NCBI GenBank assembly: GCA_023663345.1
Contig: JAMPHR010000001.1
Location: 199,997-263,996, forward strand
Length of the DNA stretch: 64,000 nucleotides
Source of the DNA: Paenibacillus sp.
GTDB taxonomy: Bacteria; Bacteroidota; Bacteroidia; Bacteroidales; Muribaculaceae
Direction of reading: 5' to 3'
The notes under the pieces were generated by a model. The model ran no database searches, was not told the DNA's origin, and saw only the letters and a list, made by a program, of their open reading frames with translations. Of this stretch, positions 23,501 to 64,000 are shown piece after piece (within the stretch, counting starts at the first letter, position 1; the number at the start of each line of letters is the position of its first letter). The position numbers and the translations under genes are program-made.

Positions 23501-23736
23501 TATATGACGGCTCATATGTCCGCCTGAAGAATGCCGAGGTGTCCTATCGTATCCCCAACAAGCTTACCCGCAAGATCGGTGTCAACAGTTGTCGCGTGTA
23601 TGTGAACGGTGACAACCTGTGGCTCTGGACCAAGATGCCCGACGACCGCGAGGGTAACCTCGGAGGCTACGGATCCACCAACGGTGCTTATCCTACCGTG
23701 CGTCGTTTCAACCTCGGTATTGACATAACCCTCTAA
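20592..23736 (+). CDS. susC: SusC/RagA TonB-dependent transporter; ATG 20592 is out of frame with the body because of a C9 tract at 20636-20644
   Basis: CarboxypepD-like domain, DEVVVVGYG, LKDASATAVYG..GANGVILITTKRG, terminal beta-strand; removing one C gives a complete signal peptide. Confidence 0.9.
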
Positions 23737-23746
23737 TAGATCAATC

Positions 23747-25642
23747 ATGAAAAAATATATATCAGGACTTTCCAAGCTTCTGCTTCTTGCCGGCGCACTG
23801 GTAGCCACCTCCTGTACCGATTATCTCGACAAGGCACCGGGCAGTGATATCGACGAGAGCGAGCCTTACAAGAACTTCCGCAATTTCCAGGGTTTCGTGG
23901 AGGAACTCTACGGAGGTCTCCCCTGTATCTCGGCCAATGATTACCACAACAGCTGGAATCTCGGTGAGGATGAGTATTGGGAACCTTCCGATCTGCGCCC
24001 TCTTGCCAATCATATCGACCAGGGTGACTATCGTGTGATAGTGACCAGCGGTCAGTACTTCTATGGTTTCCCCCGCAACGGCAACGGCAATCCCGAGTCG
24101 AGCAGTAAGGGTGACAAGGGTAATATCTGGCAGCTCGCATGGAAAAGTATCCGCAAGGCCAATATAGGACTCGCCAATCTCGGCGGACTCCAGAACGCCA
24201 CAGCCGAGGAGCGCGACCTGCTCGAGGGTCAGATGCTTTTCTTCCGCGGATGGTATCACTTCATGCTGATGCAGTACTGGGGCGGACTTCCCTACATCGA
24301 TCATGTGCTCCCCGCCGGTGAGACCCCCAATCTGCCTCGTCTCAGCTATCGCGAGACAGCCGAAAAGGCCGCCGCTGACATGGAGGCTGCCGCCAAGCTC
24401 CTCCCCATCGACTGGGATCAGACTACAGCAGGCCGTCCTACCCTCGGCAACAACAATATGCGTGCCAACAAGATCATGGCTCTCGCATTTGCCGGAAAGT
24501 GCCTCCTGTGGGCAGGCAGTCCTCTCATGAATTATGAGTCGACCGGCTCGGCTACCTATAATGCAGAATTGTGCAAGCGCGGTGCCGACCTCATGGGCGA
24601 GGCTCTCGCACTCACAGAGTCGACCGGACGCTACGAACTGGCTGACTTCTCACAGTGGAGCGACCTGTTCTACTTCGCCGACAAGGGCAACCGTGTCCCC
24701 GGCCTCAAGGAAGCCATCATGCAGGAGAGCCTTGTGGAATTCTTCAACTACAATTCCCGATTTGACTACAACCAGCGCAATGACTATTTCTCTCAGCTGG
24801 TAATCTCGGGTGGTGTGAAGGTGCAGCCCACAGCCAACTATGCCCTCTATTACGGTATGGCCAACGGCGAACCCATCCCCTCGTGGAGCGAGGCTGATGC
24901 CACCTCGGGTTATGATCCCGCCTATCCCTGGAAGGGTAGAGATCCCCGTTTCTACAAGGACTTTGCCTACGACGGCATTCAGGTTGTGACCGATCCTCAG
25001 GGTATCGTTGCCGAGACCACCAAGTATGCCAGCCTTTATACCGGTGGCCCCTGGAGAAGCAACAACGGTAACAAATCGAACCTCACCGGTCTTGTGGAGA
25101 TCAAGTTCATTCCCCAGATGGCTCCGAGCCTCAGCTCACTCTTTGACGTCCATGTAGCAATGTGCCTGTCGCTGATGCGTCTGTCGGATCTCTATCTTCT
25201 TTATGCCGAGGCAGTGACCTGCGGATACGGCTCTCCCACCTCCAAGGCCTCGACTTTCGGCATGACAGCCGTAGATGCAGTCAACAAGGTGCGTACCCGC
25301 GCAGGTGTAGGAAATGTGGCAGCCCGTTTCACCGGCTCGACCGATGCTTTCCTACCCGAACTTTACCGCGAGCGTGCCGTGGAGCTTGCTTTCGAGGGAC
25401 ATCGTTTCATCGACCTGCGCCGCTGGATGCTCCTGACCAAGCGTCCTTACACACTTAAGACCAAGCTTGAGTTTGACCGCACCAAGGAGTTCAGCTACCG
25501 CAATCCCTCCGAGGCCCGCGTTGCCAATATCCGCGAGGAGATTCTGTTTGAGCGCAAGCTTGACGATCGCCACTACTGGCTCCCGCTGCCCAACGCCGAC
25601 GTGAATATTTATCCCGAGTTTGGACAGAACCCCGGATGGTAA
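23747..25642 (+). CDS. susD: SusD/RagB lipoprotein
   Basis: Lipobox TSC, RDPRF, ERAVELAFEGHRFIDLRRW, QNPGW. Confidence 0.95.
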   Translation: MKKYISGLSKLLLLAGALVATSCTDYLDKAPGSDIDESEPYKNFRNFQGFVEELYGGLPCISANDYHNSWNLGEDEYWEPSDLRPLANHIDQGDYRVIVTSGQYFYGFPRNGNGNPESSSKGDKGNIWQLAWKSIRKANIGLANLGGLQNATAEERDLLEGQMLFFRGWYHFMLMQYWGGLPYIDHVLPAGETPNLPRLSYRETAEKAAADMEAAAKLLPIDWDQTTAGRPTLGNNNMRANKIMALAFAGKCLLWAGSPLMNYESTGSATYNAELCKRGADLMGEALALTESTGRYELADFSQWSDLFYFADKGNRVPGLKEAIMQESLVEFFNYNSRFDYNQRNDYFSQLVISGGVKVQPTANYALYYGMANGEPIPSWSEADATSGYDPAYPWKGRDPRFYKDFAYDGIQVVTDPQGIVAETTKYASLYTGGPWRSNNGNKSNLTGLVEIKFIPQMAPSLSSLFDVHVAMCLSLMRLSDLYLLYAEAVTCGYGSPTSKASTFGMTAVDAVNKVRTRAGVGNVAARFTGSTDAFLPELYRERAVELAFEGHRFIDLRRWMLLTKRPYTLKTKLEFDRTKEFSYRNPSEARVANIREEILFERKLDDRHYWLPLPNADVNIYPEFGQNPGW

Positions 25643-25664
25643 TACCTTAAATTAACCTTTCACA

Positions 25665-28484: not shown

Positions 28485-28496
28485 TAATACCTAAAA

Positions 28497-30278
28497 ATGA
28501 TACTAACGATGAAAAATATATCTCTGTCATTGATCCTCTCGGTGGGCGCGGCAATAGGCCTTTCGGCTTGTGCTGATGTCTTTGAACCATCGGAGGAGAA
28601 TCTGAAGGATGTGGACCAGATGTATGAGGATGCCACTTTCGCGCAAGGTTTCCTCGTAAACGTCTACCGTAACATCCCGGCCTACTATGACAACAGCGAG
28701 TATGCTACCGATGATGCCGTGACCAACGAGACCGACAATGCTTTCCGCAAGATGGCAACAGGCTCGTGGACCTCGAGCAACGATCCCACCTCGCAGTGGA
28801 TCAATTGCCTCAACTCCATCCAGAACCTCAATCTCTTCCTTGAGAATGCCGAGCAGGTGAACTGGGCCACAGATCCCGAGGCTGCTCAGCTTTTCAAGAT
28901 GCGTACTATCGCCGAGGGTCGCGGATTGCGCGCGCTGTACATGTATTTCCTCCTCCGCGCCCATGCCGGCGTGGCTACCGACGGACAGCTCTCCGGTGTG
29001 CCCATTCTTGACCACTATCTCACCGTGAACGATGATTTCAATATGCCGAGAGGATCGTTTGACGAATGTGTGAAATTCGCACTCGCCGATCTTGACTACG
29101 CCGAGGCCAATCTGCCCATGGAATATGAGAATCTTGGTGAGGATGATGTGGTGCCCGCACCGTTCAACCAGTACACCTCCAAAGTGGGTACCTACAACCG
29201 CGTGATGGGTCAGTATGCGCGTCAGCTCATCAATGGCCTTGCATGTAAGGCTATCCGCTCGCGTCTCACCTTGCTCGCCGCCAGCCCTGCCTATGAGGCA
29301 TCGGCCACAACCTGGGCCGATGCAGCCGATGCAGCCGCAGCAGTGCTCGATCACATCGGCGGTCCCGCCGGTATCGATCCCACCGGTGTCACCTACTACT
29401 GCAACACCACTGTGATCGATGGTCTCAGTGACGGTATCAACCCCGCTGAAATCGTGTGGCGCGAGGCTATTTCCAATAACAACACCACTCAGGAGGAGGC
29501 TCATTTCCCGCCATCGCTCTATGGCAACGGCCGCATGAACCCCACCCAGAACCTTGTGGATGCTTTCCCCATGGCCAACGGTTATCCCATCTCGGATTCG
29601 CGCAGCAACTACAATGCCGCTAATCCTTATTCGGGTCGTGACCCCCGCCTGTCACACTACATTGTGTACAACGGCTCAACCGAGGGTGTGAACAACGCTA
29701 CCATCCAGACCGGATCGGACGCCACAACAGCCGACGGCCTGAACAAACGCGAGACCTCGACCCGCACAGGCTACTATATGAAGAAGCGTCTGCGCATGGA
29801 TGTCAACATGGATCCCTCCATGAAGCAGGGTAAAACCCATTACACCCCGCGCATCCGCTACACCGAGATGTTCCTGAACTATGCCGAGGCTGCCAACGAG
29901 GCCTGGGGTCCCAGAAACTCGGGTTCGCACGGATATTCGGCATACGATGTGATCAAGGCCATACGTCACCGCGCTCTCGGTATCGACGACGATCCATATC
30001 TGGATGAGTGTGCCACGGATCCCGCAAAGATGCGCGAGCTGATACGCAACGAGCGTCGACTCGAGCTATGCTTCGAGAGCTTCCGCTTCTGGGATCTCCG
30101 CCGCTGGAAAGCAGATCTCAACGAGAATGCCCGTGGCGTGAACATCACCAACAATAATGTGTACACAGCACTTCCCAGTGTGGAGGAGCGCACATATTCA
30201 TCCTACATGTACTACGGACCGATCCCCAACACTGAGATCCTCAAGTTCAGCAATCTCAAGCAGAACCAGGGTTGGTAA
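28497..30278 (+). CDS. susD: Second SusD lipoprotein
   Basis: LSAC lipobox, RDPRL, ERRLELCFESFRFWDLRRW, QNQGW. Confidence 0.95.
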   Translation: MILTMKNISLSLILSVGAAIGLSACADVFEPSEENLKDVDQMYEDATFAQGFLVNVYRNIPAYYDNSEYATDDAVTNETDNAFRKMATGSWTSSNDPTSQWINCLNSIQNLNLFLENAEQVNWATDPEAAQLFKMRTIAEGRGLRALYMYFLLRAHAGVATDGQLSGVPILDHYLTVNDDFNMPRGSFDECVKFALADLDYAEANLPMEYENLGEDDVVPAPFNQYTSKVGTYNRVMGQYARQLINGLACKAIRSRLTLLAASPAYEASATTWADAADAAAAVLDHIGGPAGIDPTGVTYYCNTTVIDGLSDGINPAEIVWREAISNNNTTQEEAHFPPSLYGNGRMNPTQNLVDAFPMANGYPISDSRSNYNAANPYSGRDPRLSHYIVYNGSTEGVNNATIQTGSDATTADGLNKRETSTRTGYYMKKRLRMDVNMDPSMKQGKTHYTPRIRYTEMFLNYAEAANEAWGPRNSGSHGYSAYDVIKAIRHRALGIDDDPYLDECATDPAKMRELIRNERRLELCFESFRFWDLRRWKADLNENARGVNITNNNVYTALPSVEERTYSSYMYYGPIPNTEILKFSNLKQNQGW

Positions 30279-30305
30279 TATTAACAATTTCAATTCAGAA
30301 TCACA

Positions 30306-31340
30306 ATGAAAATATCCAATATACTCGCACTCGCAATGGTAGCGTCATTAGCATCGACCTCATGCCACAACAGCGACAACGAGTTTCCTGATTTCGACTA
30401 CCAGGGTGTATATTTCGCCAACCAAAGTGTAGGGCGCACTGTGGAGCTGGGCCGTGACAGCGAGATTGACCTCACGCTTGACAACCAGCACATGGTGAGG
30501 ATCCAGGCAGTGATGGGTGGTGCCTACAAGAATACCCAGAACCGCGTGATCAACATCTCGGTGGATCCCTCGCTCTGCGATGGATTGTATCTCTCGTCGG
30601 ATTTCGGCGGACGCAAGGTGCAGCCCATGCCCTCCAACTATTATGAGATCGAGGCCGGTGCCATTACCATCCCCTCGGGCTCGATGGACGGCGGAGTGCA
30701 TGTGAAGCTGACCGATGCTTTCTTCAACGATCCCCTCGCGCTGGATTTCAACTATGTGATCCCTGTGGTGATGGAGAGTGCCATAGGAGTTGACTCCATA
30801 CTCCAGGGCAAGCCCGCTGTGGAGAACCCCAACCGCGTGAAAGCGTCTGATTGGTCGGTACAGCCCAAGGATTATGTGCTCTATTTCATGCGCTATGTGA
30901 ATCCCTGGCACGGAACTTATCTGCGCAGCGGTAAGGATCTCCTCACAGTGAACGGTGCCACCACTGAAATCGTGCGCCGTGCATCGGATGTGCTCAAGGA
31001 TGAGCAGGTGGATGTGGTGACCTCGGGCTACAAGGCTTGCACCATAGTACTGTCGACCCGCACTGATGCCGACCATGTGTACAACTACACACTTAAGCTC
31101 GACTTTGCCGATGACGGCACCTGTACAGTAAGCTCGACTGATCCCTCGCTCACAATCTCGGGCACCGGCCGCTTTGTGGTGGACGGCGAGAAGAAGGTGA
31201 TCAACAATGAGGACCGTGACGCGCTCTATCTCCAGTACACTGTGACATCCGCCGCAGGATGGTCGCTTTCGACTGACGATACTCTCGTGCTCCGCAACCG
31301 TGGCGTGACAGTGGTGTATCCCACAGTAGAAGTCAAATAA
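30306..31340 (+). CDS. DUF1735/DUF5627-type surface lipoprotein (SGBP)
   Basis: TSC lipobox, FPDFDYQ, YVIP, YVNPWHGTYLR; located after susD. Confidence 0.8.
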   Translation: MKISNILALAMVASLASTSCHNSDNEFPDFDYQGVYFANQSVGRTVELGRDSEIDLTLDNQHMVRIQAVMGGAYKNTQNRVINISVDPSLCDGLYLSSDFGGRKVQPMPSNYYEIEAGAITIPSGSMDGGVHVKLTDAFFNDPLALDFNYVIPVVMESAIGVDSILQGKPAVENPNRVKASDWSVQPKDYVLYFMRYVNPWHGTYLRSGKDLLTVNGATTEIVRRASDVLKDEQVDVVTSGYKACTIVLSTRTDADHVYNYTLKLDFADDGTCTVSSTDPSLTISGTGRFVVDGEKKVINNEDRDALYLQYTVTSAAGWSLSTDDTLVLRNRGVTVVYPTVEVK

Positions 31341-31360
31341 TAACCCACTACTGAATTTCC

Positions 31361-33547
31361 ATGAAACATATAAAGATAACAATGGCGGCAGCCGTGGCCC
31401 TCGCGGGGCTTACGGCCTGTGACAAGGATTATGATGTCACCATTCCCACCCCGGAGATCCCCTTCGATGCCGAGATGGAAGCCGCTCTCAGCAAATATGA
31501 TGTGCTCACTGAATACTCCTCACGTGCAGGAGTGCCATTCGGAGTATCGGTGACACCTGAAGATCTCGCGGCCAAGAAGCTCGCGTTCAGCATTGTCACC
31601 ACCAACTACAGTCAGGTAGAGGCCCCCGGGGCCTTTACCCCCTCGCTCCTGATGAATGATGAGGGTACGTATGACTACTCGGCGCTCTCCACATTGATCA
31701 CTGCAGCCGGTGAGGCGGGCGTGAGCGTGTTTGGACCGGCGTTGTGCTCGCTCAGCAATCTTCCTGTGGATTATCTCAACGCTCAGATTGCCCCGATCAT
31801 CATACCCTACGAGCCGGTGGAGCCGGAGACGGGAGATTTCATATTCAATGATTTCGAAGGCGATGAGTTGGGCAAGACATATCCCATGAGCGGTAACAGT
31901 GTAGCCCGCGTAGTGGAGGATCCCGACGGTCAGAGCGGACATGTGCTCCATATAGGAGAGGATGGCAATACCGCTAACCAGAGTTTCCCTGAGTTTGAGG
32001 TGACTATGCCCGAGGGCAAGACTCTCGCAAATCTGACGAAAGTATGTTTCGATATCAAGGCTCCCGGTTCGGGCGGTCTTTATGGCTCGGGACTACGTCT
32101 GTTTGTCGAAGGTGTGCAGTTCTCGTTCGGAAACTGTACCACATTTGGTTGTAGCGACAACAAGTGGGGCCGCGACCTGGTGAAACTTACTTTTGAGCCT
32201 GCCCAGATGAGCGCTGCTGATCTAGAAAAGACCACATTCAAGATGCGTATAGGTTCGGCTACCGGATCGGGTAACTACTATATCGACAATATCAAGATAT
32301 TGTGGGAAGTTGCCGGTGATGATGACGGCAAAGATAATGTGCTTGACTTTGAGAACGATGCTCTTGGCAAGAGCTATCCTATGACCGGCAACAGCTTTGC
32401 AGTTGTAGCAAACGATCCTGAAGGAAAGAGCGGAAAGGTGCTACAGGTGGGTTCCCAGGCTGATCCTTCCAACCATTCCTACGTTAAGGTTACAGTGAAA
32501 CTCCCCGAGGGTCGCAAACTTGGAGACTATGAGGCATTCCAATGTGACATGAAGACAGTCTCCGGTCAGTATGGCTGGGGTGGTAAGGTGCTTATCGGCG
32601 ATCGTCAGATCGGTGTGGGTAGTCCAGCCGATTTCAGTGCTAACGATGGAGGTCCGTGGGTGCGCGGAGGCATCTATATTTCGTTTGTTGATTCAAGCAA
32701 TGCGAAAAGGTATATCGAGCTTACCGATGAGGAAAAGGCGATGACTGAATTCATATTCAGCTACAATGCTGATTCCGGAGCAGGTATTTTCTATCTCGAC
32801 AACTTCACTTTCAAGCGTGTGATCTCGACCGAGGACACCGTGATAGAGAAGACTCCTGAGGAGAAGACAGAAATCATGCAGGGCGAGCTTGACAAGTGGA
32901 TCGACGGTCTCGTTGCCACCACCGGTGAAAGCGTTACCGACATGATAATCTACGACGAGCCTTTCGACGATGAGGTTGCCTCGTTCAACTGGGCCGATTA
33001 TCTCGGCGATGATTACGTAGCCAAGGCTCAGGCCAAGGTTGATGCAGCCGCTACAGCTCCTGTCCGCTACTTCGTGAGCCAGACTCTGGTGATGAACGAC
33101 AATACCGCCGGTGATATCGCCGATCTTGCCACTGAAATCAGTAAGCTTGAGCAGAAGGGGGTGAAGGTTGATGCAGTAAATCTCGTGCTCTCCGCAACAT
33201 ATTCGGAGGATTATGTTACCCAGCAGAAGAATGATGAGACCGCTGTGGCTGCCATGGAGGCTCTCGCATCACTCGGCAAGCCGGTGCGCATCTCCAACTT
33301 TGCAGTGCGCGTGGTGAACCGTGGCAATATGCTTGTCAATCCTTCGACCATAGGTATCTCGGAGCGCAGGGCTATCGGTGAGTACTATGCCACCGTGATC
33401 AAGGCCTATAAGCAGGCTCTTGGCGATCAGGCACTCGGATTCAACCTCTCGCGTGTGGTTGAGGATGGCACATTTGTGGCTCCATGGGCAGCAGGTGGTA
33501 ACCGCAACTATATCTATGAGGGTCTCGTGAACGGACTTTCCAAGTAA
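31361..33547 (+). CDS. GH10-like lipoprotein interrupted by two tandem CBM-like modules; probably catalytically inactive SGBP
   Basis: LTAC lipobox; split GH10 layout (EKTPEEK linker); nucleophile motif reads RISNFA instead of ISELD; duplicated DFE.D.LGK.YPM.GNS modules. Confidence 0.75.
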   Translation: MKHIKITMAAAVALAGLTACDKDYDVTIPTPEIPFDAEMEAALSKYDVLTEYSSRAGVPFGVSVTPEDLAAKKLAFSIVTTNYSQVEAPGAFTPSLLMNDEGTYDYSALSTLITAAGEAGVSVFGPALCSLSNLPVDYLNAQIAPIIIPYEPVEPETGDFIFNDFEGDELGKTYPMSGNSVARVVEDPDGQSGHVLHIGEDGNTANQSFPEFEVTMPEGKTLANLTKVCFDIKAPGSGGLYGSGLRLFVEGVQFSFGNCTTFGCSDNKWGRDLVKLTFEPAQMSAADLEKTTFKMRIGSATGSGNYYIDNIKILWEVAGDDDGKDNVLDFENDALGKSYPMTGNSFAVVANDPEGKSGKVLQVGSQADPSNHSYVKVTVKLPEGRKLGDYEAFQCDMKTVSGQYGWGGKVLIGDRQIGVGSPADFSANDGGPWVRGGIYISFVDSSNAKRYIELTDEEKAMTEFIFSYNADSGAGIFYLDNFTFKRVISTEDTVIEKTPEEKTEIMQGELDKWIDGLVATTGESVTDMIIYDEPFDDEVASFNWADYLGDDYVAKAQAKVDAAATAPVRYFVSQTLVMNDNTAGDIADLATEISKLEQKGVKVDAVNLVLSATYSEDYVTQQKNDETAVAAMEALASLGKPVRISNFAVRVVNRGNMLVNPSTIGISERRAIGEYYATVIKAYKQALGDQALGFNLSRVVEDGTFVAPWAAGGNRNYIYEGLVNGLSK

Positions 33548-33577
33548 TCACTTTAGACACACTCTTAAATCGAGTTT

Positions 33578-36412
33578 ATGAAAATCAATCGCATATTCTC
33601 GACCGCAGTTCTCCTGTCGGCACTCTCGGTGATGTTCACCGGGTGTGACGACAAGGAGTTCACGGCCCCGGTGCTTGCACCGCAGGCTGTGGAGACTCCG
33701 GTCGACAACATCAATGCCAACATCGCGGCTGTGAGGAGCTTTGTGCAGGCCAAGGAGATAGGTTCCAAGGTGCGCATGACCAGCTCGTTGCCCGACGATG
33801 CCGGCTATATGATAGAATTTACCGACGGTAATACTGTGGCGCTGAAGACCAAGGTGGGATCGCTCACGGATTATCCTACGTCGGAAGGCGCAAGATATAC
33901 TCCTACAGTGGCCGCAATGCCGGCTGAGGATGGGGTGTATTACTGGACCGTTGACGGCGAGTGGCTTACAGCCCAAGGTACTGACAACCGTATCAACGTT
34001 ACCGGTGCGCGTGCCGTGACTCCGCGCGTGAGCATCAACAGCGATGGCCGATGGGTGATAGACGCTCTCGATTACGGAAAGACCGTGTTGCAGAGTGCAT
34101 CGCGTGGCGAGCAGATAAGCGCCATAAAGACTATCGACGTGTCGGATGCCGACAATATCACTGTATATTTCAACGATGATACCGAGCCTCTGCAGCTCGC
34201 TGCCGGTGGTGGCACCTCCAAGCCTAATGAGCCTGTGAAGGGGCATCTGCGCCGTCCTATTGATGTGAACAATCCCGCATGGCTTGTGCATATCGACTCG
34301 TGGAACTATCCTGACCCCAATAAGATCATTGATCTTATCCCTGAGGATATCCTGCCTTATTGTATATTTAATATTTCGTTGTCGGTATTCCATAATAATG
34401 ATACCGGTCAATTCAAGGTCAGCGAGTATGGATATGAAATATGCAAATCGTGGCTCAGAACCTGTGCCGAGCGCAATCTCTGGGCTATGGTGCAACCGGC
34501 ATCGGGAGGCATCAGCCATTTCCCGGATGTGGATTCTTATTCCCAGTTTGATGAGGAGAAATATGGGGTGTACAAGGAGTTCTTTGAAGATTATCCCAAT
34601 TTCCTTGGCTTCAATTACTGTGAGCAGTTCTGGGGCTTTGATTCTTCGGATGGCATATATTCTCCGACATGGCTCCAGCGAGTGGCCCACTGGAATGAAT
34701 TACTTAAGTTGACACATGAGTATGGCGGTTACCTCGTGGTAAGTTTCTGCGCCAATTATTGGTCAGCTCCCATCAATCCGGTGGCTACTATCAAGCGTAA
34801 TCCTGATTTTGCCCAGACTACGGCAATGTATGCCGAGAACTTTGTGTATTGCGAGAAGTACACTCAGTCAGGTTGCTTCTTCGACGTGGAGGCCTCAAGT
34901 ATGGGTATGTGGCTTTCGGGACATGCCGATAACTATGGTCTGCGCTTTGACCAGTGTGCATGGAATGAGTGGGCTGCGAAATATTACAACTGGAGCAATA
35001 AGGAGGAGGATTTCCCCGTGGCTCTCGGAGCGGCTCTTAAACTTGAGCATACTACTCTTACAGGTCAGACTGTATTTGACGGTCCTGAGCTGATATGGCA
35101 ACAGGATTTTAAAGAGACCAATGCCATTGATGTCTCTGACGGATACAAGACCCGTAATTGGGACACATTTTCCCAGTTCCGCAATATCGACATGGATCTT
35201 TACCGCAAGATTCTCGATGGAACAATCCGCATCCTCACTCGTGATGAGGTGATAGAGCGTTGCAAGTATGCCATTGTGCAGGACGTAGCAGGTGGTGCCG
35301 AAATCGAGCAGTACTGTCTGCCCAAGTGGTTCCATAAGGGTATCGGCGCACTTGATCATGACGAGGGACGTGAGGACAACCACTTCTATCTGCGTAAGAC
35401 CGGCCGCTATCCCGCCATTCCTGTAGTGGCTGAATTTGCCGGTGATTTCGCCAAGAAGTTCAAGCATGTGCGCAATCAGAGCGAGATTCTCAGCACATGG
35501 GAGAATGAAGGCGCCAAGGTGCGTGAGCTCAACAGGGAGTTCCCGTCGGAATATACCGGTGATCTCTTTGCCGGCCGTCACGAGAACACTTGGGTGACTT
35601 ACAATCCTTGGAATACCACCAAGTCGGCTACCGTGCCTTTCAAGTACAATACTTGCGAGAGCGTGGAGTTCACACTCGAGACATTTGCCACTACGGTATG
35701 GAAAGAGTATGCCGACAAGGTTACATTCTATCTCACCAAGTATCAGGTGGACGGCAAGTCGACCAAATCGGTAATCAAGATTAACGGCGCAACATCCCAG
35801 CCCACAGTGTCGTGGACTCCGAGAGCCGAGGCTACTGTAAAGGTCAGCGAGTCGTGGGCTAATGGAGTACTGACTCTGACGATTGATCATAATGGTCCGC
35901 TTGACATTACCGTGTCATGTGCAGGAAACGGCACAGGCCGTCTCACGGATTACACACCGGCATCGCTTCAGGTGCCCGGCAAACCTAATCTGTATTACGG
36001 TGCCCGTCAGTACGAGGCTGAGGTATTTGATTTCAAGAATGTAGGTACACGTGTCACTTCGGGTTATGACCGAGATGTGCGTAACTATACCGGTCAGGGT
36101 TACATCGTGTTTGGCTCATCGGCAAGCGCTGCTGTGCGCGATGAAGTGAGCGTGATTGATGAAGGCCGTTATGCCATCAAGTTCCGCTACAGGGCCGAGA
36201 CTGCCGATGTCACTACTGTGGATCTCTATGTCAACGGACAGAAAGTGGGCACTCCGTCGTTCATCCAGTCGGGAGCCGATAAGACCATTTGGTATGTATG
36301 CTCGACAGGTGCATTCCTGCCTGCCGGCAAGAGCACTATCGAGCTTAAGGCCAATGCTCCCGCAGCATGTGACCTGTATCTCGACAATCTTGTGATCGAG
36401 CCTGTTGAGTAA
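33578..36412 (+). CDS. GH98-type endo-xylanase with N-terminal lipoprotein/DUF4988-like domain and C-terminal CBM35
   Basis: TGC lipobox, YYWTVDGEWL, LRRPI..WLVHIDSWN, YCEQFWG, QYEAE CBM35; position matches GH98 of xylan PULs. Confidence 0.8.
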   Translation: MKINRIFSTAVLLSALSVMFTGCDDKEFTAPVLAPQAVETPVDNINANIAAVRSFVQAKEIGSKVRMTSSLPDDAGYMIEFTDGNTVALKTKVGSLTDYPTSEGARYTPTVAAMPAEDGVYYWTVDGEWLTAQGTDNRINVTGARAVTPRVSINSDGRWVIDALDYGKTVLQSASRGEQISAIKTIDVSDADNITVYFNDDTEPLQLAAGGGTSKPNEPVKGHLRRPIDVNNPAWLVHIDSWNYPDPNKIIDLIPEDILPYCIFNISLSVFHNNDTGQFKVSEYGYEICKSWLRTCAERNLWAMVQPASGGISHFPDVDSYSQFDEEKYGVYKEFFEDYPNFLGFNYCEQFWGFDSSDGIYSPTWLQRVAHWNELLKLTHEYGGYLVVSFCANYWSAPINPVATIKRNPDFAQTTAMYAENFVYCEKYTQSGCFFDVEASSMGMWLSGHADNYGLRFDQCAWNEWAAKYYNWSNKEEDFPVALGAALKLEHTTLTGQTVFDGPELIWQQDFKETNAIDVSDGYKTRNWDTFSQFRNIDMDLYRKILDGTIRILTRDEVIERCKYAIVQDVAGGAEIEQYCLPKWFHKGIGALDHDEGREDNHFYLRKTGRYPAIPVVAEFAGDFAKKFKHVRNQSEILSTWENEGAKVRELNREFPSEYTGDLFAGRHENTWVTYNPWNTTKSATVPFKYNTCESVEFTLETFATTVWKEYADKVTFYLTKYQVDGKSTKSVIKINGATSQPTVSWTPRAEATVKVSESWANGVLTLTIDHNGPLDITVSCAGNGTGRLTDYTPASLQVPGKPNLYYGARQYEAEVFDFKNVGTRVTSGYDRDVRNYTGQGYIVFGSSASAAVRDEVSVIDEGRYAIKFRYRAETADVTTVDLYVNGQKVGTPSFIQSGADKTIWYVCSTGAFLPAGKSTIELKANAPAACDLYLDNLVIEPVE

Positions 36413-36441
36413 AACTTGATAGTAGTTAATACACTATGACG

Positions 36442-36488
36442 ATTTCCGCGGGCCTTTCTGTGTCGAGTAGGCCTGCGGAAATTTTTTA
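36442..36488 (+). terminator. Intrinsic terminator
   Basis: TTTCCGCGGGCCT / AGGCCTGCGGAAA followed by T-run. Confidence 0.75.
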
Positions 36489-36511
36489 ATATACACGTTG
36501 AAAATTATATT

Positions 36512-38881
36512 ATGCGTAAACTATATGGATTACTTGTGGCTGCTATGTTTGCCCCGATGGGAGTAGTAGCTCAGGATAAATTGTATGACAATGCGTTTCC
36601 GCTCGGGGATGTCAAACTGCTTGACGGTCCTTTCAGGCACGCAATGGATCTGAATGTGGATGTGTTGTTGCAATATGACGTGGACCGTCTGCTGGCACCA
36701 TATCTTAAGGAGGCCGGGCTGAAACCCAAGGCCGAGAGCTTTCCCTGTTGGGACGGACTTGACGGACATGTGGGCGGTCATTATCTTACGGCATTGGCCA
36801 TACACTATGCCTCGACAGGCGACAAGAGGCTAAAGGACAGGATGGACTACATGATCTCGGAGGTGAAGCGTTGTCAGGATGCCAACGGTGACGGTTATGC
36901 CGGAGGTGTACCCAACGGTGCTCCGCTGTGGAAGGAGATCAAGGAGGGTAGGACTGACATGGTGTGGAAATACTGGGTGCCCTGGTACAATGTACACAAG
37001 ATGTATGCCGGATTGCGCGACGCGTGGGTATATTGCGGTAACGCCGAGGCCCGTGACATGTTTATAAGTTTCTGCGACTGGTGCGTGGATGAGATATCGG
37101 CTGTAAGCGATGATGAGATGGAGAAGATGCTCGGAAACGAGTTTGGAGGCATGGACGAGGTACTTGCCGACGCATATTCCATAACCGGAGACAAGAAATA
37201 TCTTGACGCAGCCAAGCGTTTCTCGCATCATTGGCTTCTGGACAGCATGGTGGCCGGAGTGGATAACCTCGACAACAAGCACGCCAATACCCAGGTGCCC
37301 AAGGTGGTAGGCTATCAGCGCATAGCCGAGCTTGGTGGTGGAGAGGAATATGATACAGCCGCACGGTTCTTCTGGCATACTGTGGCCGATACCCGTTCAC
37401 TATCCATAGGCGGTAACAGCCGACGGGAGCATTTCGCATCCAAGGATGACTGCAAGAGTTATGTCACCGACCGCGAGGGGCCGGAGACATGTAACACCAA
37501 TAATATGCTCAAGCTCACCGAGGGATTGTTCCGCATGAAGCCCGACGGGCATCTGGCCGATTTCTATGAGCGTGCGCTGTTCAATCACATACTGTCGTCA
37601 CAGCATCCTGACCACGGCGGATATGTGTACTTCACATCGGCCCGTCCCGGTCATTACAGGGTTTATTCCCAGCCTAATGCCGGCATGTGGTGCTGTGTAG
37701 GTACCGGCATGGAGAATCATGGTAAATACGGACAGTTCATATATACCCATGAAGGGGATTCACTGTATGTCAATCTGTTTATACATTCGAGTCTCGACTG
37801 GAAGCAGAAAGGGGTGAAGCTGACTCAGGAAACGGCTTTCCCCGATACTGAAAATACCAGGCTGGTGATGAATATGAAGGGATCGAAGAAATTCCCGCTG
37901 ATGGTGCGTCACCCGGAATGGTGTGAGGGGATGGTGGTAAAGATCAACGGCAAGAAGTGGGAGGTGAAATCCGCCCCCGGTTCATACGCCTGTATCGACC
38001 GGAAGTGGAAAAACGGAGATGTCGTAGAGGTGGATCTGCCTATGGAGATGCACATTGAGGAGATGCACAATCTTCCCGAGTATGTATCCATAATGCGTGG
38101 CCCGATTGTGCTCGGAGCCTCCTACAGCACTGATGATCTTAACGGTCTTGTGGCCGACGACAGCCGTTGGGCCCATGTGGCCGGTGGTCCGCTGGTATCG
38201 GTGTTTGATACGCCTATACTTGTTGGGGAAAGAGATGATATCCTTGGCAAACTCAAGTCGGCTACACGAGTGAAAGGTGAGGGGTTGGCATATACTGTAA
38301 AGGGTATAACTTCCGATCCTGAACAGGAGATCGTGTTGCGTCCGTTTGCCCGTCTGCATGACTGCCGTTACATGATGTATTGGCTCTCGATGACACCTGA
38401 GGCATATACTTCCTATCAGCAACGGGAGCGCGAGGCCGAGCAGGCGATGCTCGCTCTCGACCGTCGCACGGTCGATGCGGTAAATACGGGTGAGCAGCAG
38501 CCCGAGGCCGATCATTTTATGGAGAGCGAACGGTCAGGATCAGGCGTAAACTTCGGTGTGCCCTGGCGTGATGCTTCCAATGGTGGATATTTCTCTTACC
38601 GTATGAAGACTGCCGGCGGATCTCCGCTCGCATTGCATGTGAGGTATTGGGGTAACGAGGGAGGAAAACGTTCGTTTGCAATCCTTGTGGATGATGCCGT
38701 CCTGGCCCGGGAAAATGTAGGTTCACGATGGAACAAAGAGGAATTTGTGGACGTGGAATATCCAATTCCGGCTGAGATGCTTGCAGGCAAGGATCATGTC
38801 ACGGTGAAATTTGCCAGCGAGCCCGGCAATATTGCCGGCGGTGTGTATCACTTGAGAATAGTTGAGCAGAGCGCTGACTGA
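36512..38881 (+). CDS. GH127/GH146 beta-L-arabinofuranosidase
   Basis: GHVGGHYL, EFGGM, HANTQ, PETC, WCCVG Zn/Cys motif. Confidence 0.9.
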   Translation: MRKLYGLLVAAMFAPMGVVAQDKLYDNAFPLGDVKLLDGPFRHAMDLNVDVLLQYDVDRLLAPYLKEAGLKPKAESFPCWDGLDGHVGGHYLTALAIHYASTGDKRLKDRMDYMISEVKRCQDANGDGYAGGVPNGAPLWKEIKEGRTDMVWKYWVPWYNVHKMYAGLRDAWVYCGNAEARDMFISFCDWCVDEISAVSDDEMEKMLGNEFGGMDEVLADAYSITGDKKYLDAAKRFSHHWLLDSMVAGVDNLDNKHANTQVPKVVGYQRIAELGGGEEYDTAARFFWHTVADTRSLSIGGNSRREHFASKDDCKSYVTDREGPETCNTNNMLKLTEGLFRMKPDGHLADFYERALFNHILSSQHPDHGGYVYFTSARPGHYRVYSQPNAGMWCCVGTGMENHGKYGQFIYTHEGDSLYVNLFIHSSLDWKQKGVKLTQETAFPDTENTRLVMNMKGSKKFPLMVRHPEWCEGMVVKINGKKWEVKSAPGSYACIDRKWKNGDVVEVDLPMEMHIEEMHNLPEYVSIMRGPIVLGASYSTDDLNGLVADDSRWAHVAGGPLVSVFDTPILVGERDDILGKLKSATRVKGEGLAYTVKGITSDPEQEIVLRPFARLHDCRYMMYWLSMTPEAYTSYQQREREAEQAMLALDRRTVDAVNTGEQQPEADHFMESERSGSGVNFGVPWRDASNGGYFSYRMKTAGGSPLALHVRYWGNEGGKRSFAILVDDAVLARENVGSRWNKEEFVDVEYPIPAEMLAGKDHVTVKFASEPGNIAGGVYHLRIVEQSAD

Positions 38882-40286: not shown

Positions 40287-41297
40287 TCAGGAATAAAGGG
40301 CGGATGCTTTACGGTAGATTTCAGCCAATTGTTTGGCTACGGAGTCGGGAGACAGGATTTTGATGCCGGCTCCGAAACCGAGGAGTTGGGATATGAGCTC
40401 GTAGTTGACCACTACTGTCAGTTGGAATGTCATTGAGCCGTCGGCCTTGTTTTTTTCGATCAGGCGTTGGGATGAGTGGATCGGTTTGGTGAGGATATAG
40501 CTGGCTTGAGAGTTGTCGGCTCTCAGAATGATTGTCTCTTTCTTCAAGCGGGAGTGTTTGGTCACGCCGACCACATCGTCGAAGAAGTCTGGGCCAAAAT
40601 CCGGGTTGGGTTGATAGGGGATATCGGGGCATGAGTGGAAGTCCACGATGCGGTCAAGGGCGAGATTGAATAGTTTCATATCGTCGGCCCGAGATCCGAA
40701 CAGAAACCACCGATTGCGGTACTCCTTCAGAAGATAGGGAAATATTATATATGGTACGGGACTGCGGGAGTTGAAGGAGCGATAGTTGATACATATAGTC
40801 TGTCGGGAGGCAACCATGTCGTAGAGAGGATTAAGATGCTCAAGGCCTTTCAGATTGGGGTTGCGCTCGAAATCAACTATTGGTTGGCGACTGCTCACGG
40901 ATGCCACCTTGTCCTGAAGTCGGCTGACCACGTCGGCCATATCATGGAAACGGTCAAATTCATCGAACTGGCGCAGGAGATCGATCGTGCGGTTGAGCAC
41001 GTCGATGTCGTGTTGTGACAAGGGGCGGTTGCTGATAGAATAATCCGGGTCGGCATACCGGTAGTATTTCTTGTCATAGACCTCAATAGGCGCTTCGTAG
41101 CCAAGACGGTCGGAGCGCATCATCTGTATGTCGAGCTGGACGGTGCGGGTGCTGACCAGATCCTGTTTCCCTTCAAACTCATAAAGGGCGTCGCTGCAAG
41201 CATCCACAAGATCCTGCAGTGTCCACCGCCGGGTTGTGTTGCGCAGACAGCGATCGATGGTACGGTATCTCAGGAGTGCGTTTTTATTCTGAGCCAT
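40287..41297 (-). CDS. HTH-WYL-WCX transcriptional regulator (PafB/YafY/DriD-like)
   Basis: N-terminal wHTH (NKNALLRY, RTVQLDI), WYL core PYLLKEYRNRWFLFG and LALDRI, C-terminal WCX. Confidence 0.92.
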   Translation of the reverse strand: MAQNKNALLRYRTIDRCLRNTTRRWTLQDLVDACSDALYEFEGKQDLVSTRTVQLDIQMMRSDRLGYEAPIEVYDKKYYRYADPDYSISNRPLSQHDIDVLNRTIDLLRQFDEFDRFHDMADVVSRLQDKVASVSSRQPIVDFERNPNLKGLEHLNPLYDMVASRQTICINYRSFNSRSPVPYIIFPYLLKEYRNRWFLFGSRADDMKLFNLALDRIVDFHSCPDIPYQPNPDFGPDFFDDVVGVTKHSRLKKETIILRADNSQASYILTKPIHSSQRLIEKNKADGSMTFQLTVVVNYELISQLLGFGAGIKILSPDSVAKQLAEIYRKASALYS

Positions 41298-41333: not shown

Positions 41334-41369
41334 TACGCAAAAACATTGCGCACGAGGTTTCTAATTTTG
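41334..41369 (+). promoter_or_regulatory. Palindromic operator TACGCAA-N5-TTGCGCA 9 nt upstream of a -7 element (putative WYL activator site)
   Basis: TACGCAA 41334-41340, TTGCGCA 41346-41352, TAATTTTG 41362-41369; same geometry at rtcB. Confidence 0.75.
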
Positions 41370-41398: not shown

Positions 41399-42289
41399 AT
41401 GAAGAAGGATATGATTTTCTTTTCGAAAGATGGTAATGGTCTGACATCAACCTCTGCTAACCATATCGCTAATCTGGCCAAGGAGTGGGTGCGCGAGATC
41501 GAGACTTCGCTTGCCAATCTTACGCTCTATTCAACGTCGGTTGCGTTGATAGGAAGCGATAATGTCAATGTATTGAGCGAGGGGGACAATGCTGATGCTC
41601 TGCGCGAGGTACGGTCGGACCTACATACTATTGCAAAAGCCAATTCGCTGATAGCGTGGCTCCGTGAGGCTATCAAGGCTAAGGAACGGCTACTGAAGGA
41701 GACGGAGGATATGTCGGTACAGGAGTATCGGAAGATGCAGGGTATTGAAGCGCCTGAGGCTCCTAAGATGGGGAAAGTTCTCACGGAGGATGAATATTAT
41801 GCGTCGCTGTCGCTTGACGAGCGTAACCGTTACTACTCGCTGGAGGCGTTGGCTTCGGTGCTCGGGAAGGCTGTGCATCCCGACGGATCGCTTGCAGAAG
41901 CCCGCGAGCAGTTGAGCGAAAGGATGAAGAAGCCTAAAAGCGTGGAGGGAACAGGCCGGGATGCTCTTATCTATACCTATGCTCCTACGGTGGAGATGAA
42001 GGTGGCCGATGAGGTGTATTTCGCTCTACAGAAGGAGTTCCGCGAAGTGCAGGCGTTGCTCAATGCCATAAAGTTCGAGTGTCATAAGGCGGTGAAAGAG
42101 TCGGAGGTAGAGGTGAGTACGGCCTATGCTGACGCTTACGCTAAGTATGATTCCGAAAGGATCAGAATCCAAAATGAGATGTCGGCATACATAAAAAAGC
42201 GTACACGAGAAATCGCTAATTACAGAATAGTGATACCTGAGTCTCTGAAGGAGATATACGAAAAAGTATCCCATCTCGGGAAAAAATAG
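41399..42289 (+). CDS. Uncharacterised predominantly alpha-helical/coiled-coil protein (GLTSTSANHIANLAKE, SLIAWLREAIKAKE motifs)
   Basis: 296-aa ORF with promoter, normal codon usage, charged amphipathic helices; no signal peptide or catalytic motif recognised. Confidence 0.85.
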   Translation: MKKDMIFFSKDGNGLTSTSANHIANLAKEWVREIETSLANLTLYSTSVALIGSDNVNVLSEGDNADALREVRSDLHTIAKANSLIAWLREAIKAKERLLKETEDMSVQEYRKMQGIEAPEAPKMGKVLTEDEYYASLSLDERNRYYSLEALASVLGKAVHPDGSLAEAREQLSERMKKPKSVEGTGRDALIYTYAPTVEMKVADEVYFALQKEFREVQALLNAIKFECHKAVKESEVEVSTAYADAYAKYDSERIRIQNEMSAYIKKRTREIANYRIVIPESLKEIYEKVSHLGKK

Positions 42290-42620
42290 GGCGGGCTGTA
42301 GGAACCTGAGAATCCGTTTGTGATGTAGGGTTCCGCATGTCGGAGGATTACGCCATTCATTGGTTAGAACCGGCACGCCTACGCTGGTGTGCCACATGTG
42401 CTAATAAGAACCAAATCTTCATAAGGGGTAAAATCCCCATGAGTTGGCCGGGCTGCAATCAATTTAGTCCGGAGGCTTCCTTTTACGGGGAGCGGTCCGG
42501 GCAATGTCGCAGATGACTTGATTGTCGGAGACTGTTCTTGTTCTTGATGCAGCTACGGGTTTTTGCTTTAGCTTTTATTCTTGATATTGTTGGCGTAAAT
42601 CCCGAGACACCAGTCCACTC
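42289..42620 (+). ncRNA. Candidate structured non-coding RNA (~330 nt) co-transcribed with the 296-aa gene
   Basis: 5'/3' closing helix 42289-42298/42611-42620; long-range helix 42345-42355/42591-42602; internal stems 42301-42334, 42372-42393, 42419-42442, 42455-42525, 42467-42502; terminator follows. Confidence 0.7.
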
Positions 42621-42621
42621 G

Positions 42622-42660
42622 GTGGCGGGGAGGTCAATCCTTCCCGTCACTTTTTTATTT
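42622..42660 (+). terminator. Intrinsic terminator
   Basis: GTGGCGGGGAGG / CCTTCCCGTCAC (12 bp, 2 G-U) + TTTTTT. Confidence 0.85.
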
Positions 42661-43530
42661 ACGGTGATATTCTCGTGATATATTGTCGAGAATTTGTTCT
42701 AACCTTTTGATCCGTTCTTGGTCTTCCCATACTATGGGATTGGAAGTCATGTTGAATGAATTTACCCGGATGTTTTTATTGATGCTATAGCATGAGAAGT
42801 CGGATGTAAGAAATTCATTCAATGTATCCGCGGTCACTATATAGGATCTTCGTGTGCGGGTGTTGCCAAAACGTCCGGATGTAGGTAGCATTACCGGGAA
42901 TATACTCCGTGCGACATAATTAGGTGGACAAGGTATCCTACAGGTTGTAAAAGGAGGTATGGTGTCGGTAATATTGTAATGATTGTTGATCTCTTTGCCC
43001 AAAAACGCATAGCTGACCACCACGCGATAAAGCGTATCTCCGGAATCATTGACAACGTATGAATCCGTGGGGCTGAAATTATCGGTAAACGGCCATGCAC
43101 GGGTAGTTGCGACTTCATATTTGCCATGCTCTCCGCTTACAGTGGTGACATCAGGAAATATCCATCGGCAAAAGAATACCACTCCCATATTCATAACGGA
43201 ACATAGAGTAAAAGCCACCATGAGGCTGTTGAGTAGACTTAATTTGGGTATCTCTTTGTATTTGGTTGATTTACGAAACGATATTGCGAATAAATACAAT
43301 GAAATCAGTCCGGAAGTTACGGTATATTCTATAGAGCAAATATGGTGAAATGCAAGGAAAAAATATAATAAAGCCCCCAATATAAATAATATAGCGATAG
43401 ATATAACCGAACTCGTCTTGCCTGGAACTTTTGCAGAATTACTCTTAGCCATTTGACTTAGCCAATATCCGGATAGTTGCCAAAACAATATGGATATAAT
43501 GATAAAGAGGGTCAGAGCAAGTGCTTCCAT
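42655..43530 (-). CDS. Hypothetical membrane protein (about 4 N-terminal TM helices plus a soluble domain)
   Basis: 291-aa ORF, low GC, -7 element TAACTTTG at 43559-43566 on the minus strand. Confidence 0.7.
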   Translation of the reverse strand: MEALALTLFIIISILFWQLSGYWLSQMAKSNSAKVPGKTSSVISIAILFILGALLYFFLAFHHICSIEYTVTSGLISLYLFAISFRKSTKYKEIPKLSLLNSLMVAFTLCSVMNMGVVFFCRWIFPDVTTVSGEHGKYEVATTRAWPFTDNFSPTDSYVVNDSGDTLYRVVVSYAFLGKEINNHYNITDTIPPFTTCRIPCPPNYVARSIFPVMLPTSGRFGNTRTRRSYIVTADTLNEFLTSDFSCYSINKNIRVNSFNMTSNPIVWEDQERIKRLEQILDNISREYHRK

Positions 43531-43609: not shown

Positions 43610-43802
43610 ATATAAGTAAGTCTTAAAAATTAACCGCTATATGTAAGTCCTAAAGAGCTTGCCCAATAAATCTTGTTCTTTTTGGCTATTTTGGCATTGT
43701 CACTCAGTCGCATAGCTCGCTATGCTCCTTCATTCCGCAACCAAAATATCTCAAAAATAACTGCGATTTATATGTGCATTAATTTTTACGACTTACTTAT
43801 AT
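43610..43802. mobile_element. MITE-like ~190-bp palindromic element
   Basis: 24-bp terminal inverted repeats (1 mismatch) 43610-43633 / 43779-43802; nested internal inverted arms; central GCATAGC-TC-GCTATGC. Confidence 0.65.
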
Positions 43803-62694: not shown

Positions 62695-63957
62695 TTATTT
62701 TGATGCCTTGAAGTTGAATATTGGCCGAATGATTGTGTCAATCTTTACCGTGTCTCCTATATTGGCAATAATTTCATCGGCAGGTTTATATGCCATGGGC
62801 GATTCGTCACGGGTGAAGTCGTTGACGCTTTCGGAATATATCCCCGACATAGATGCCTCGAAATCTTCCATTTTGATTTGGGCGTATGCTTGGGTGCGGC
62901 TCAATACGCGTCCCGCACCGTGAGGAGCTGAACAGTTCCAATCAGGATTGCCCTTGCCGGTGCAAAGCAAAGACCCATCGCGCATATTGAGCGGAATGAT
63001 GCACCGCTCGCCTGCGGCGGCCGAGATGGATCCTTTGCGGATGATGTTGTCATCGCTGATATAGTTGTGTATCGATTCAAACTCTTCGACCACTGACGTA
63101 TCGGGGAAGAATTTCAATAAGAGCAACGATATCAGTTCCCTGTTTAATGAGGCCCAGCGTTGGCAAAGACGCATATCATGGAGATAGTCTTCACGAGCCT
63201 CGCCCTCGACATAACATAGGTCGCGCGGGAACATTGGCTCGGCCAATTGCTGATTCTTACGCATATTCTTGATTACGCCTTGAAGTTCAGAACGGCGACC
63301 TGCGGCCTTGTACTCCTCGATTGTTCGCCTTATTGCTTCCTCAAACTCATCAGCGCCTTCGGTGAGATGCTTTATGGCCCGGGCCTGGTAGATTTCTGCT
63401 ACCTGCTTGCCAAGATTGCGGGATCCGGTGTGGATAACAAGATACACGTTCCCTTCATCATCCTTATCCAGCTCAATGAAATGGTTGCCACCTCCGAGAG
63501 AGCCTATGGCCTTGTTGATGCGGTCGGAGTATTTCAATTCACGATAGCAACGGAGAGCAAGTACAAGCTTCTTGGCTTCGCGGTATATATCCATTTCTTC
63601 TCCGGCGAGTTGCTTGAATCCTCGTTTCTCTTCGCGGATCAGCATACCCGATGGCACATTTGCCTTGATATGCTCATGGAAAGCATGGTAATCAATATCA
63701 TCAGCCTTGCCAAGATTAAGGATCCTCATGCCGCATCCTATATCCACTCCCACGATATTGGGGATGACTTTATCCCCGAGGTCGCCGGTGAATCCGATCA
63801 CGCATCCTGCTCCTGCGTGAACGTCGGGCATTATGCGTATCTTCTTGTCGGAGAATACATCAATGGAGATAAGCTCTTTGATCTGCTCCAACGCGTTCTC
63901 TTCAATGTTGTCAGTGAATATCTTCACGTCATAACCTTCGATTGTTTTCATAATCAA
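62695..63957 (-). CDS. rtcB: RtcB RNA ligase (RNA repair)
   Basis: MPDVHAG, VGVDIGCG, GSLGGGNHFIE, IHTGSRNLG, APHGAGR. Confidence 0.95.
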   Translation of the reverse strand: MIMKTIEGYDVKIFTDNIEENALEQIKELISIDVFSDKKIRIMPDVHAGAGCVIGFTGDLGDKVIPNIVGVDIGCGMRILNLGKADDIDYHAFHEHIKANVPSGMLIREEKRGFKQLAGEEMDIYREAKKLVLALRCYRELKYSDRINKAIGSLGGGNHFIELDKDDEGNVYLVIHTGSRNLGKQVAEIYQARAIKHLTEGADEFEEAIRRTIEEYKAAGRRSELQGVIKNMRKNQQLAEPMFPRDLCYVEGEAREDYLHDMRLCQRWASLNRELISLLLLKFFPDTSVVEEFESIHNYISDDNIIRKGSISAAAGERCIIPLNMRDGSLLCTGKGNPDWNCSAPHGAGRVLSRTQAYAQIKMEDFEASMSGIYSESVNDFTRDESPMAYKPADEIIANIGDTVKIDTIIRPIFNFKASK

Positions 63958-63974: not shown

Positions 63975-64000
63975 CAAAGTTAAATCGCTCCTGCGCAATT
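63975..64000 (-). promoter_or_regulatory. rtcB promoter: TTGCGCA half-site, 9 nt, TAACTTTG (upstream half-site would lie beyond the window)
   Basis: Minus strand aaTTGCGCA-ggagcgatt-TAACTTTG; geometry identical to 41346-41369. Confidence 0.72.

Follow-up and report, generated by a model that had tools for sequence, protein, structure and literature searches.

Gene X and the structured RNA directly behind it: a candidate ribonucleoprotein of Muribaculaceae, Prevotella and large phages

The locus

In the stretch of DNA analysed here (64,000 nucleotides, termed the window), the gene for a helical protein, X, is followed by a large non-coding RNA. The two elements abut: position 42289 is both the last base of the X stop codon and the first base of the RNA and of its closing helix, P1. 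The feature list (Table 1) further includes a divergent regulator gene, a predicted operator, a promoter box, a terminator, and the RNA ligase gene rtcB at some distance.

Table 1. Features of the X-RNA locus and of rtcB, in window coordinates
Feature	Coordinates	Strand	Evidence
Transcription regulator with WYL+WCX domains, divergent from X; predicted to control the unit	40287..41297	-	Pfam WYL E 7.9e-10, WCX E 3.4e-11
Palindromic operator RCGCA-N7-TGCGYA, predicted WYL site	41335..41352	.	
-7 promoter box TAnnTTTG	41362..41369	+	sequence
Gene X, coding for a 296-aa helical protein outside the catalogued families; candidate RNA binder	41399..42289	+	
Whole non-coding RNA, ~330 nt, closed by P1	42289..42620	+	
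P2, 5' hairpin	42301..42334	+	98% paired, 9 homologs
P3 5' strand, pairs with 42591-42609	42338..42355	+	alignment-free and close-homolog pairing
Variable domain with hairpins 42372-93 and 42419-42	42360..42445	+	fold prediction
P4 5' strand, pairs with 42548-58	42448..42457	+	57/97 own-partner; 88% paired
Optional hairpin in P4 loop, missing in most homologs	42467..42502	+	fold and homolog alignment
Kink-turn hairpin: 3-bp C stem, 3-nt bulge, tandem GA/GA, 3-bp NC stem	42506..42532	+	
Tract T1, 2 hexamers G-N-U-N-U-N plus G, single-stranded	42534..42546	+	
P4 3' strand, between T1 and T2	42548..42558	+	
Tract T2, ~5 hexamers G-N-U-N-U-N, single-stranded	42559..42590	+	
P3 3' strand	42591..42609	+	
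Intrinsic terminator, 13-bp stem and T run, directly 3' of P1	42621..42661	+	
rtcB RNA ligase, 20 kb from X	62695..63951	-	same operator and -7 box just upstream

Two other parts of the window were noted. Positions 20653-38881 hold a long run of large ORFs on one strand, the last two resembling glycan-degrading proteins; this is probably an ordinary polysaccharide utilisation locus. An intergenic element of about 190 bp (43610-43800) recurs, 97% identical, at two places in another X locus (L057), one copy standing 5' of X in the place that the WYL gene takes in the window. It looks like a mobile repeat.

Protein X and its distribution

Homologs of X number 1832 after clustering at 90% and 858 at 50%. 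Comparison of X with Pfam, NCBIfam, and PHROGs revealed no family, the sole match, below cutoff, being KxDL (E 0.057), and the PDB likewise yielded none by sequence. PADLOC, run on 15 members, gave weak partial matches in three. The structure model (pLDDT 93) is helical with two beta-hairpins. Fold searches with this model returned no PDB match at E 0.001; the best VIA Z was 7.2, for generic bundles, and residues 234-296 were barely covered. The ESM Atlas offers one unnamed cluster at 0.81, and BFVD one uncharacterised phage protein that matches the fold at TM 0.75. A homodimer prediction scored 0.35 (mark 0.42), which counts neither for nor against a dimer, and a search for longer, fused forms of X found none (weak evidence).

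X holds invariant polar residues. In the model, residues Q211, R215, Q218, and N222 are spaced i, i+4, i+7, and i+11 along the helix formed by residues 200-246.

According to database records, X homolog loci come mostly from Muribaculaceae and Prevotella, and many homologs lie on viral contigs of about 90-190 kb. Distribution is patchy: counting the source genome, X was found in 2 of 301 genomes of the order (the second being a weak partial match), 36 of 401 of the family, and 1 of 401 of the phylum. Carriers of the X-RNA pair are Muribaculaceae, Prevotella, and large phages. In the phages the pair often has tRNAs as neighbours, with a tRNA no more than 200 nt away at 19 of 46 viral loci versus 4 of 71 genome loci.

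Structure of the RNA

The initial annotation drew a nested set of helices downstream of X and proposed that they form in RNA. All of them can indeed be drawn in the window, and the + strand of 42289-42620 folds with an energy of -121.5 kcal/mol (z -3.70), which none of 100 shuffles equalled. The outer helices covary. A folded RNA at this place is real and conserved. The G-U pairs on the + strand had been taken to favour an RNA-level structure over DNA palindromes. Within the window the - strand gives z -2.23. Across 25 homologs the mean z is -3.4 for the + strand versus -2.9 for the - strand, with + better in 16. This asymmetry is weak, so the G-U argument alone is modest.

Individual helices were scored for pairing in nine close homologs. 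The outer ones hold, each with two-sided changes: P1 (42289-98/42611-20; 9 of 10 pairs in the window, 79% paired in the homologs); P2, GGAACC/GGTTCC (6 of 6, 98%); TGTC/GACA (42338-41/42606-09; 4 of 4, 100%); and P3 (11 of 11 with one bulge, 90%). Two inner helices of the same set do not. TTGGTT/AACCAA (42360-65/42409-14) forms 6 of 6 pairs in the window yet is only 41.5% paired across the close homologs; GCAATCAA/TTGATTGT forms 8 of 8 and is 65% paired, with no two-sided change. Neither is supported: GCA at 42455-57 belongs to another helix, P4 (42448-57/42548-58), which is 88% paired in the nine homologs, and TTGATT is the loop of the kink-turn hairpin. Among the hairpins, 42372-93 forms 8 of 8 pairs, 42419-42 has four plus four pairs flanking a 2-nt bulge, and the stem at 42467-502 is present in the predicted minimum-energy fold; the three peripheral hairpins sit in a variable, poorly aligning part of the RNA.

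A revised structure of 46 pairs is 90% paired in the nine close homologs and contains 13 two-sided pairs, versus 6.0 in shuffles; when slid, it is 26-51% paired. The revised helix set is 12 kcal/mol better than the original (-91.7 versus -79.7 kcal/mol). An alignment-free pairing test was also applied to 97 of the 115 non-redundant homologs, taken for having clear tracts at a spacing of 24-29 nt, scoring how often the own partner is the best of 11; chance is 8.8. In 57 of the 97, the best partner for the segment between the tracts is its own upstream RNA, which defines P4; for the segment after T2 this holds in 45, which confirms P3. For T1 and T2 themselves the corresponding counts are 5 and 2. 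Having no pairing partner of their own, both tracts are single-stranded. Together, these comparisons support a nested, covarying structure at the RNA level on the + strand. The most conserved features, namely the hexamer tracts, P4, and the kink-turn, are those that the initial annotation overlooked.

Two tests for pseudoknots between the 5' part and the P4 loop gave no own-versus-cross signal. Rfam 15 (including ROOL, GOLLD, OLE, and raiA) has no match at gathering over the window and none at E up to 5 over 42200-42750, and over the window ARAGORN calls neither a tRNA nor a tmRNA.

Two further patterns were seen in P2. A loop-E-like GUA/GAA pattern at its base matches in only 34 of 136 homologs, a count made without a control, and no claim is based on it; six phage RNAs (L177, L179, L181, L185, L188, L196) share, by eye, a recurrent internal loop, CUGA...(G/A)AAA.

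Hexamer tracts and kink-turn

The homolog set began with 209 loci with an X match, of which 205 have at least 300 nt downstream and 115 are non-redundant. Two G-N-U-N-U-N tracts (score at least 19, a threshold picked after the scores had been seen) are present in 109 of these 115 downstream regions, versus 2 of 115 local shuffles and 0 of 115 reverse complements. Over the T1 and first T2 hexamers of 99 regions, G1 is 93-100% conserved (83% in one hexamer), U5 94-100%, and U3 82-91%. The tracts are 25 or 26 nt apart in 74 of the 115, and RNA length ranges from about 220 to 430 nt.

A larger set (264 loci, 136 non-redundant) includes 130 with tracts. Among the six without them, L216, L231, and L194 keep the RNA farther away, L206 has tracts that are degenerate by eye, and for L168 and L245 no RNA was found behind X. 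In L216 and L231, insertions separate the X stop codon from the RNA core or interrupt the RNA, and the core is intact. In L194 (3700-4530), the RNA is about 680 nt from X, and a small ORF resembling a membrane protein and a tRNA-like sequence stand between the two, the sole such arrangement seen.

A kink-turn consists of a C stem, a 3-nt bulge, tandem G-A/A-G pairs, and an NC stem. This consensus stands directly 5' of T1 in 79 of 113 homologs, whereas 50 shuffles gave a mean of 1.0 and a maximum of 4; the search rule itself required pairing of two C-stem pairs. All defining features are present, and the second and third pairs of the C stem vary on both sides; the window has GUC/GAC where most homologs have GCC/GGC. 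The motif is missing in 34 of the 113, including C-type phages. No L7Ae gene was found in the source genome (87% complete).

The tracts might instead be read by the ribosome. As a tmRNA-like template, they would give GNY-NUN codons and hence a tag that alternates small (V/A/D/G) and hydrophobic (F/L/I/M) residues; the frame is stop-free within the consensus, the hydrophobic pattern is uniform, and the predicted regulon (below) includes a ribosome-rescue factor. However, the usual spacing puts T1 and T2 mostly out of frame; there is no conserved start or stop, the next stop coming 3 to 96 codons on; the GNY wobble base is restricted to U or C, and the second codon is seldom GUN; and the ARAGORN result is negative. 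Out-of-frame tracts, lack of conserved start or stop, and a fixed wobble base argue that selection acts on the bases, and the template reading is hardly credible.

A candidate specificity residue

Residue 218 of X goes with position 3 of the hexamer. Where it is Gln (115 loci), position 3 is C in 7% of hexamers; where it is Glu (11 loci), position 3 is C in 79%. (Ser occurs in two loci, and Thr and Asn in one each.) Residue 218 is the best separating column of the alignment, with 3 errors in 130; columns 84 and 85 separate U from C nearly as well (4 errors), and columns 66 and 81 tie within a 19-row clade. In the sister pairs L016/L018 and L013/L193, residue 218 and position 3 switch together. 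On a FastTree phylogeny of the 130 rows the Gln/Glu label needs three changes, and the two independent contrasts point in the same direction, a number that puts significance out of reach (sign test p 0.5). One locus, L134, is an exception, with Gln218 and yet C in four of its seven hexamers. Chemically, the Gln amide would suit O4 of U, and the Glu carboxylate would suit the N4 amine of C. The link suggests that residue 218 may read position 3 directly, a lead and not a proof. The Gln/Glu and U/C pairing provides a two-mutation test of a protein-RNA recognition code.

L134 falls, with L129 and L133, in a Prevotella/Bacteroides clade in which X has Asp21-Phe22 and lacks Gln211, and in which the RNA has deviating tracts and no kink-turn. 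This clade should be useful for mapping more residue-base contacts.

Fixed positions that alternate with free ones, together with a protein that co-varies with a fixed one, also fit a guide of the VIPR kind, in which the fixed bases would bind X and the variable bases 2, 4, and 6 would spell out a non-contiguous nucleic-acid target. The available text of bioRxiv 10.64898/2026.04.26.720920 provides a precedent, and the information content of the 19 free positions is 27.7 bits over 107 loci. Nevertheless, these positions change more slowly than the four-fold sites of X in four of five distance bins (0.045/0.100, 0.048/0.182, 0.30/0.41, and 0.41/0.59), and faster only in the closest (0.032 versus 0.017; the pairs are non-independent). 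They are 53% U and 4% G. Each locus has one RNA, with no array seen; complementarity of T2 to the coding sequence of its own locus is near chance (12 of 60, chance 10); the X model shows no RRM strand order; and five skip rules, applied with one guide, revealed no own-genome target above chance. (One own-genome site that matches 13 of 13 under skip-1 was discarded: it is low-complexity intergenic DNA, and 5 of 100 permutations did equally well.) The guide reading is not supported, and we consider it very doubtful.

A bolder variant is likewise a long shot. It holds that this is a second, RAMP-independent non-contiguous RNA code, in which X would polymerise at one subunit per hexamer on G1/U3/U5 with a one-residue specificity switch, and the free bases would be displayed to pick out damaged tRNA, rRNA, or foreign nucleic acid in RtcB-linked repair or in phage counter-defence.

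Predicted regulation and tie to rtcB

WYL domains are predicted sensors of nucleic-acid fragments (PMC4012209, in the part available). The palindrome between the WYL gene and X has 19 matches in the source genome, and only two of these have a -7 box: the one before X, and a second copy 5' of rtcB (G000:C11:263988-264005) that runs across the window end (window 63992-64000). The box before X matches what we take to be the Bacteroidota -7 consensus, TAnnTTTG. In relatives (G639, G568), operator and box precede rtcB, rtcB with an RF-1-family (PrfH-like) gene, and an AAA ATPase gene, and stand beside WYL genes. In L086 the order is WYL, box, rtcB, X, RNA.

Among homologs, the operator with a TTTG -7-like box lies upstream of X at 30 of 85 loci from non-viral collections, the other 55 having no box, and at 0 of 46 viral loci; of 75 bacterial loci, only 5 have a WYL gene next to X; and a search of five X-bearing genomes did not find rtcB in three. 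The suggestion of an RtcB link, made at the outset, thus survives as predicted co-regulation only: rtcB lies 20 kb off behind the same operator, and control would be exerted by a WYL protein, not RtcR. There appears to be an undescribed WYL regulon in Muribaculaceae, which in relatives would include rtcB-prfH and the AAA ATPase gene.

One phage cluster (L006) has X, a metallophosphoesterase-like ORF, an RtcB-like ORF, and a DUF6847 (DIP1984-like) coiled-coil gene (L006:1836-2288) followed by 680 nt that are gene-free and hold short A/U-rich repeats. The DUF6847 gene and this stretch are possibly another protein-RNA pair of the same response; the DUF6847/DIP1984 protein has no similarity to X.

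Does the RNA exist apart from the mRNA?

The initial annotation proposed checks for processing at the P1 ends and for circularisation by RtcB. Eight sequencing runs, chosen for containing the stretch, were compared with it as contigs only; the RNA runs carry a related strain, mostly 90-99% alike. In run X8 a contig covers 42279-42614, with adapter at 42279, and in run X16 a 305-nt contig lies wholly within the RNA (42301-42606). In run X5 the summed contig depth is 20,000-95,000 on the RNA versus 36-194 on the ORF, more than 100 times, although depth of this kind cannot rank parts of a gene and contigs cannot show ends, strand, or level. Single contigs span ORF and RNA in runs X6 and X12, and in X1 and X19 contigs run through, as DNA would; X19 may be the source of the window. 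No circular or joint junction was seen in the eight runs, contigs being unable to show absence. Contigs from RNA libraries that stop close to the ends of P1 fit such an RNA and are a weak hint of a discrete, abundant species.

Another proposal is that the RNA is a cis-acting 3' UTR to which X binds, setting the stability or level of its own mRNA, with the RNA itself having no other function. P1 does start at the stop codon, and the terminator comes right after. Moreover, no protein-free copy of the RNA was found. In viral contigs, three DNA-pattern scans yielded 156 loci, two with X, and the others inspected were low-complexity repeats (no new C-type loci were among the 156); a model of the RNA core matched in 11 of 151 family genomes, always just behind X, most of these matches being in or near the training set. 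However, feedback alone would hardly call for so elaborate an RNA (about 220-430 nt, with a kink-turn), RNA-only contigs exist, and L194, L216, and L231 hold the RNA away from the stop codon. We judge this proposal quite improbable.

Proposed mechanism

Sequence comparison establishes the helices, kink-turn, unpaired tracts of period six, near-fixed place behind X, and operator common to rtcB and rtcB-prfH, from which function can be proposed. X very probably forms a ribonucleoprotein with this RNA, and a link of the pair to an RNA-damage response is rather likely. The overall reading that we find best, for which we see about as much chance of being right as wrong, is a particle of several X proteins on the repeats that acts in the RNA-damage response, in a role like that of Ro60-Y RNA.

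In this scheme, the WYL protein would sense nucleic-acid fragments and switch on X and its RNA along with RtcB. The RNA would be freed at P1 from the 3' end of the X mRNA and build up as a stable species. One X would bind per hexamer, at about seven sites, and would recognise G1, U3, and U5, the base at position 3 through residue 218; P4 would space the two tracts, and the RNA would form a closed rod. More tentatively, and with the chances somewhat against it, the particle may lure RNA-cutting toxins as a decoy, or bring damaged RNA to repair or decay enzymes as a tether. The response is predicted to be one to damaged tRNA and ribosomes, in which the particle would take the role that Ro60-Y RNA has elsewhere. 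Phages might carry X and its RNA, like their tRNAs, to maintain translation against host nucleases.

Similar parts could instead make a toxin-antitoxin system or damage sensor of the type III kind: abundant RNA would keep about seven X proteins inactive, and cleavage of the RNA would free X to cause arrest. Repeated binding sites are predicted on one RNA, there is a hint of RNA excess over mRNA, the two-part cassette is self-contained at many chromosomal sites and in phages, and the invariant polar residues of X could be catalytic. X matches no toxin family, however, the PADLOC matches being as described; X occurs without detectable RNA in L168 and L245; the operator is common to repair genes; and pseudoknot signal is absent. 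This alternative is unlikely, though we take it more seriously than the others.

Comparison with known systems

Type III toxin-antitoxin systems (ToxIN, CptIN, TenpIN) are two-part cassettes in which an abundant RNA carries repeated sites for the protein. Here, the RNA lies 3' of the gene with the terminator after it, there is no pseudoknot array, and X matches no toxin or endoribonuclease family. TRAP on the trp leader and PUF-type readout likewise involve repeated protein units that read fixed bases at regular intervals, with free spacers in between, and a Gln/Glu-type specificity switch; those proteins are unrelated to X, whose sites lie in a dedicated structured RNA. Compared with tmRNA, this RNA lacks a tRNA-like domain and a tag frame with a stop.

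VIPR (Vipr with vrRNA) is, like X and its RNA, a phage-borne protein-RNA pair with short repeats that alternate fixed and free bases (bioRxiv 10.64898/2026.04.26.720920). According to the available part of that source, it has a RAMP/RRM protein of about 20 kDa with a G-loop and thumb, 9-16 tandem GGY/NN pentamers with hypervariable NN, often in arrays, and DNA targets. In contrast, X is modelled as helical, without the beta-alpha-beta-beta-alpha-beta order, and its RNA has hexamers in tracts of two and about five set within a rod. Its free bases are not hypervariable, and the own-genome search gave no target.

Ro60 (Rsr) and Y RNA are a further parallel. The rsr-yrlBA-rtcBA operon likewise joins a protein gene to its own non-coding RNA, with an RtcB tie and a ligand-sensing regulator (PMC7790460, PMC4987338, as far as available), and tether or decoy roles have been proposed for Rsr-Y RNA (PMC7790460); for X, the RtcB tie is a predicted one. 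However, X has 296 residues, no TROVE match, and no clear match in fold searches; this RNA, at about 330 nt, has no Rfam Y-RNA match (E up to 5) and no tRNA call; and the regulator is a WYL protein where the operon has RtcR. Tethering to PNPase is a further trait of the Ro60/Rsr-Y system. Y RNAs, which often have a tRNA-like domain, are not known to carry tracts of period six. The RtcB2-PrfH ribosome rescue and repair module, predicted in relatives to belong to the same WYL regulon, is protein-only, with no RNA partner mentioned in the available part of its description (PMC9304027).

X and its RNA thus lack defining features of Ro60-Y RNA, VIPR, type III toxin-antitoxin systems, and tmRNA. No description of the pair was found in the literature searched, and the searched supplement files of two RNA-candidate screens (PMC10690425, PMC8040213) were free of five motif terms; larger supplement files of both, outside the search, may list a fragment of the RNA among their unnamed candidates. 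According to the available text of PMC7790460, it is an open question which substrates and partners bacterial RtcB has. The predicted operator would put X and its RNA in the RtcB/PrfH RNA-repair response of Bacteroidales, making the pair a candidate RtcB partner in gut Bacteroidales and their phages. If the preferred reading is true, the pair would be a bacterial and phage ribonucleoprotein of a new class, joining a new large RNA to a protein that has no clear solved relative.
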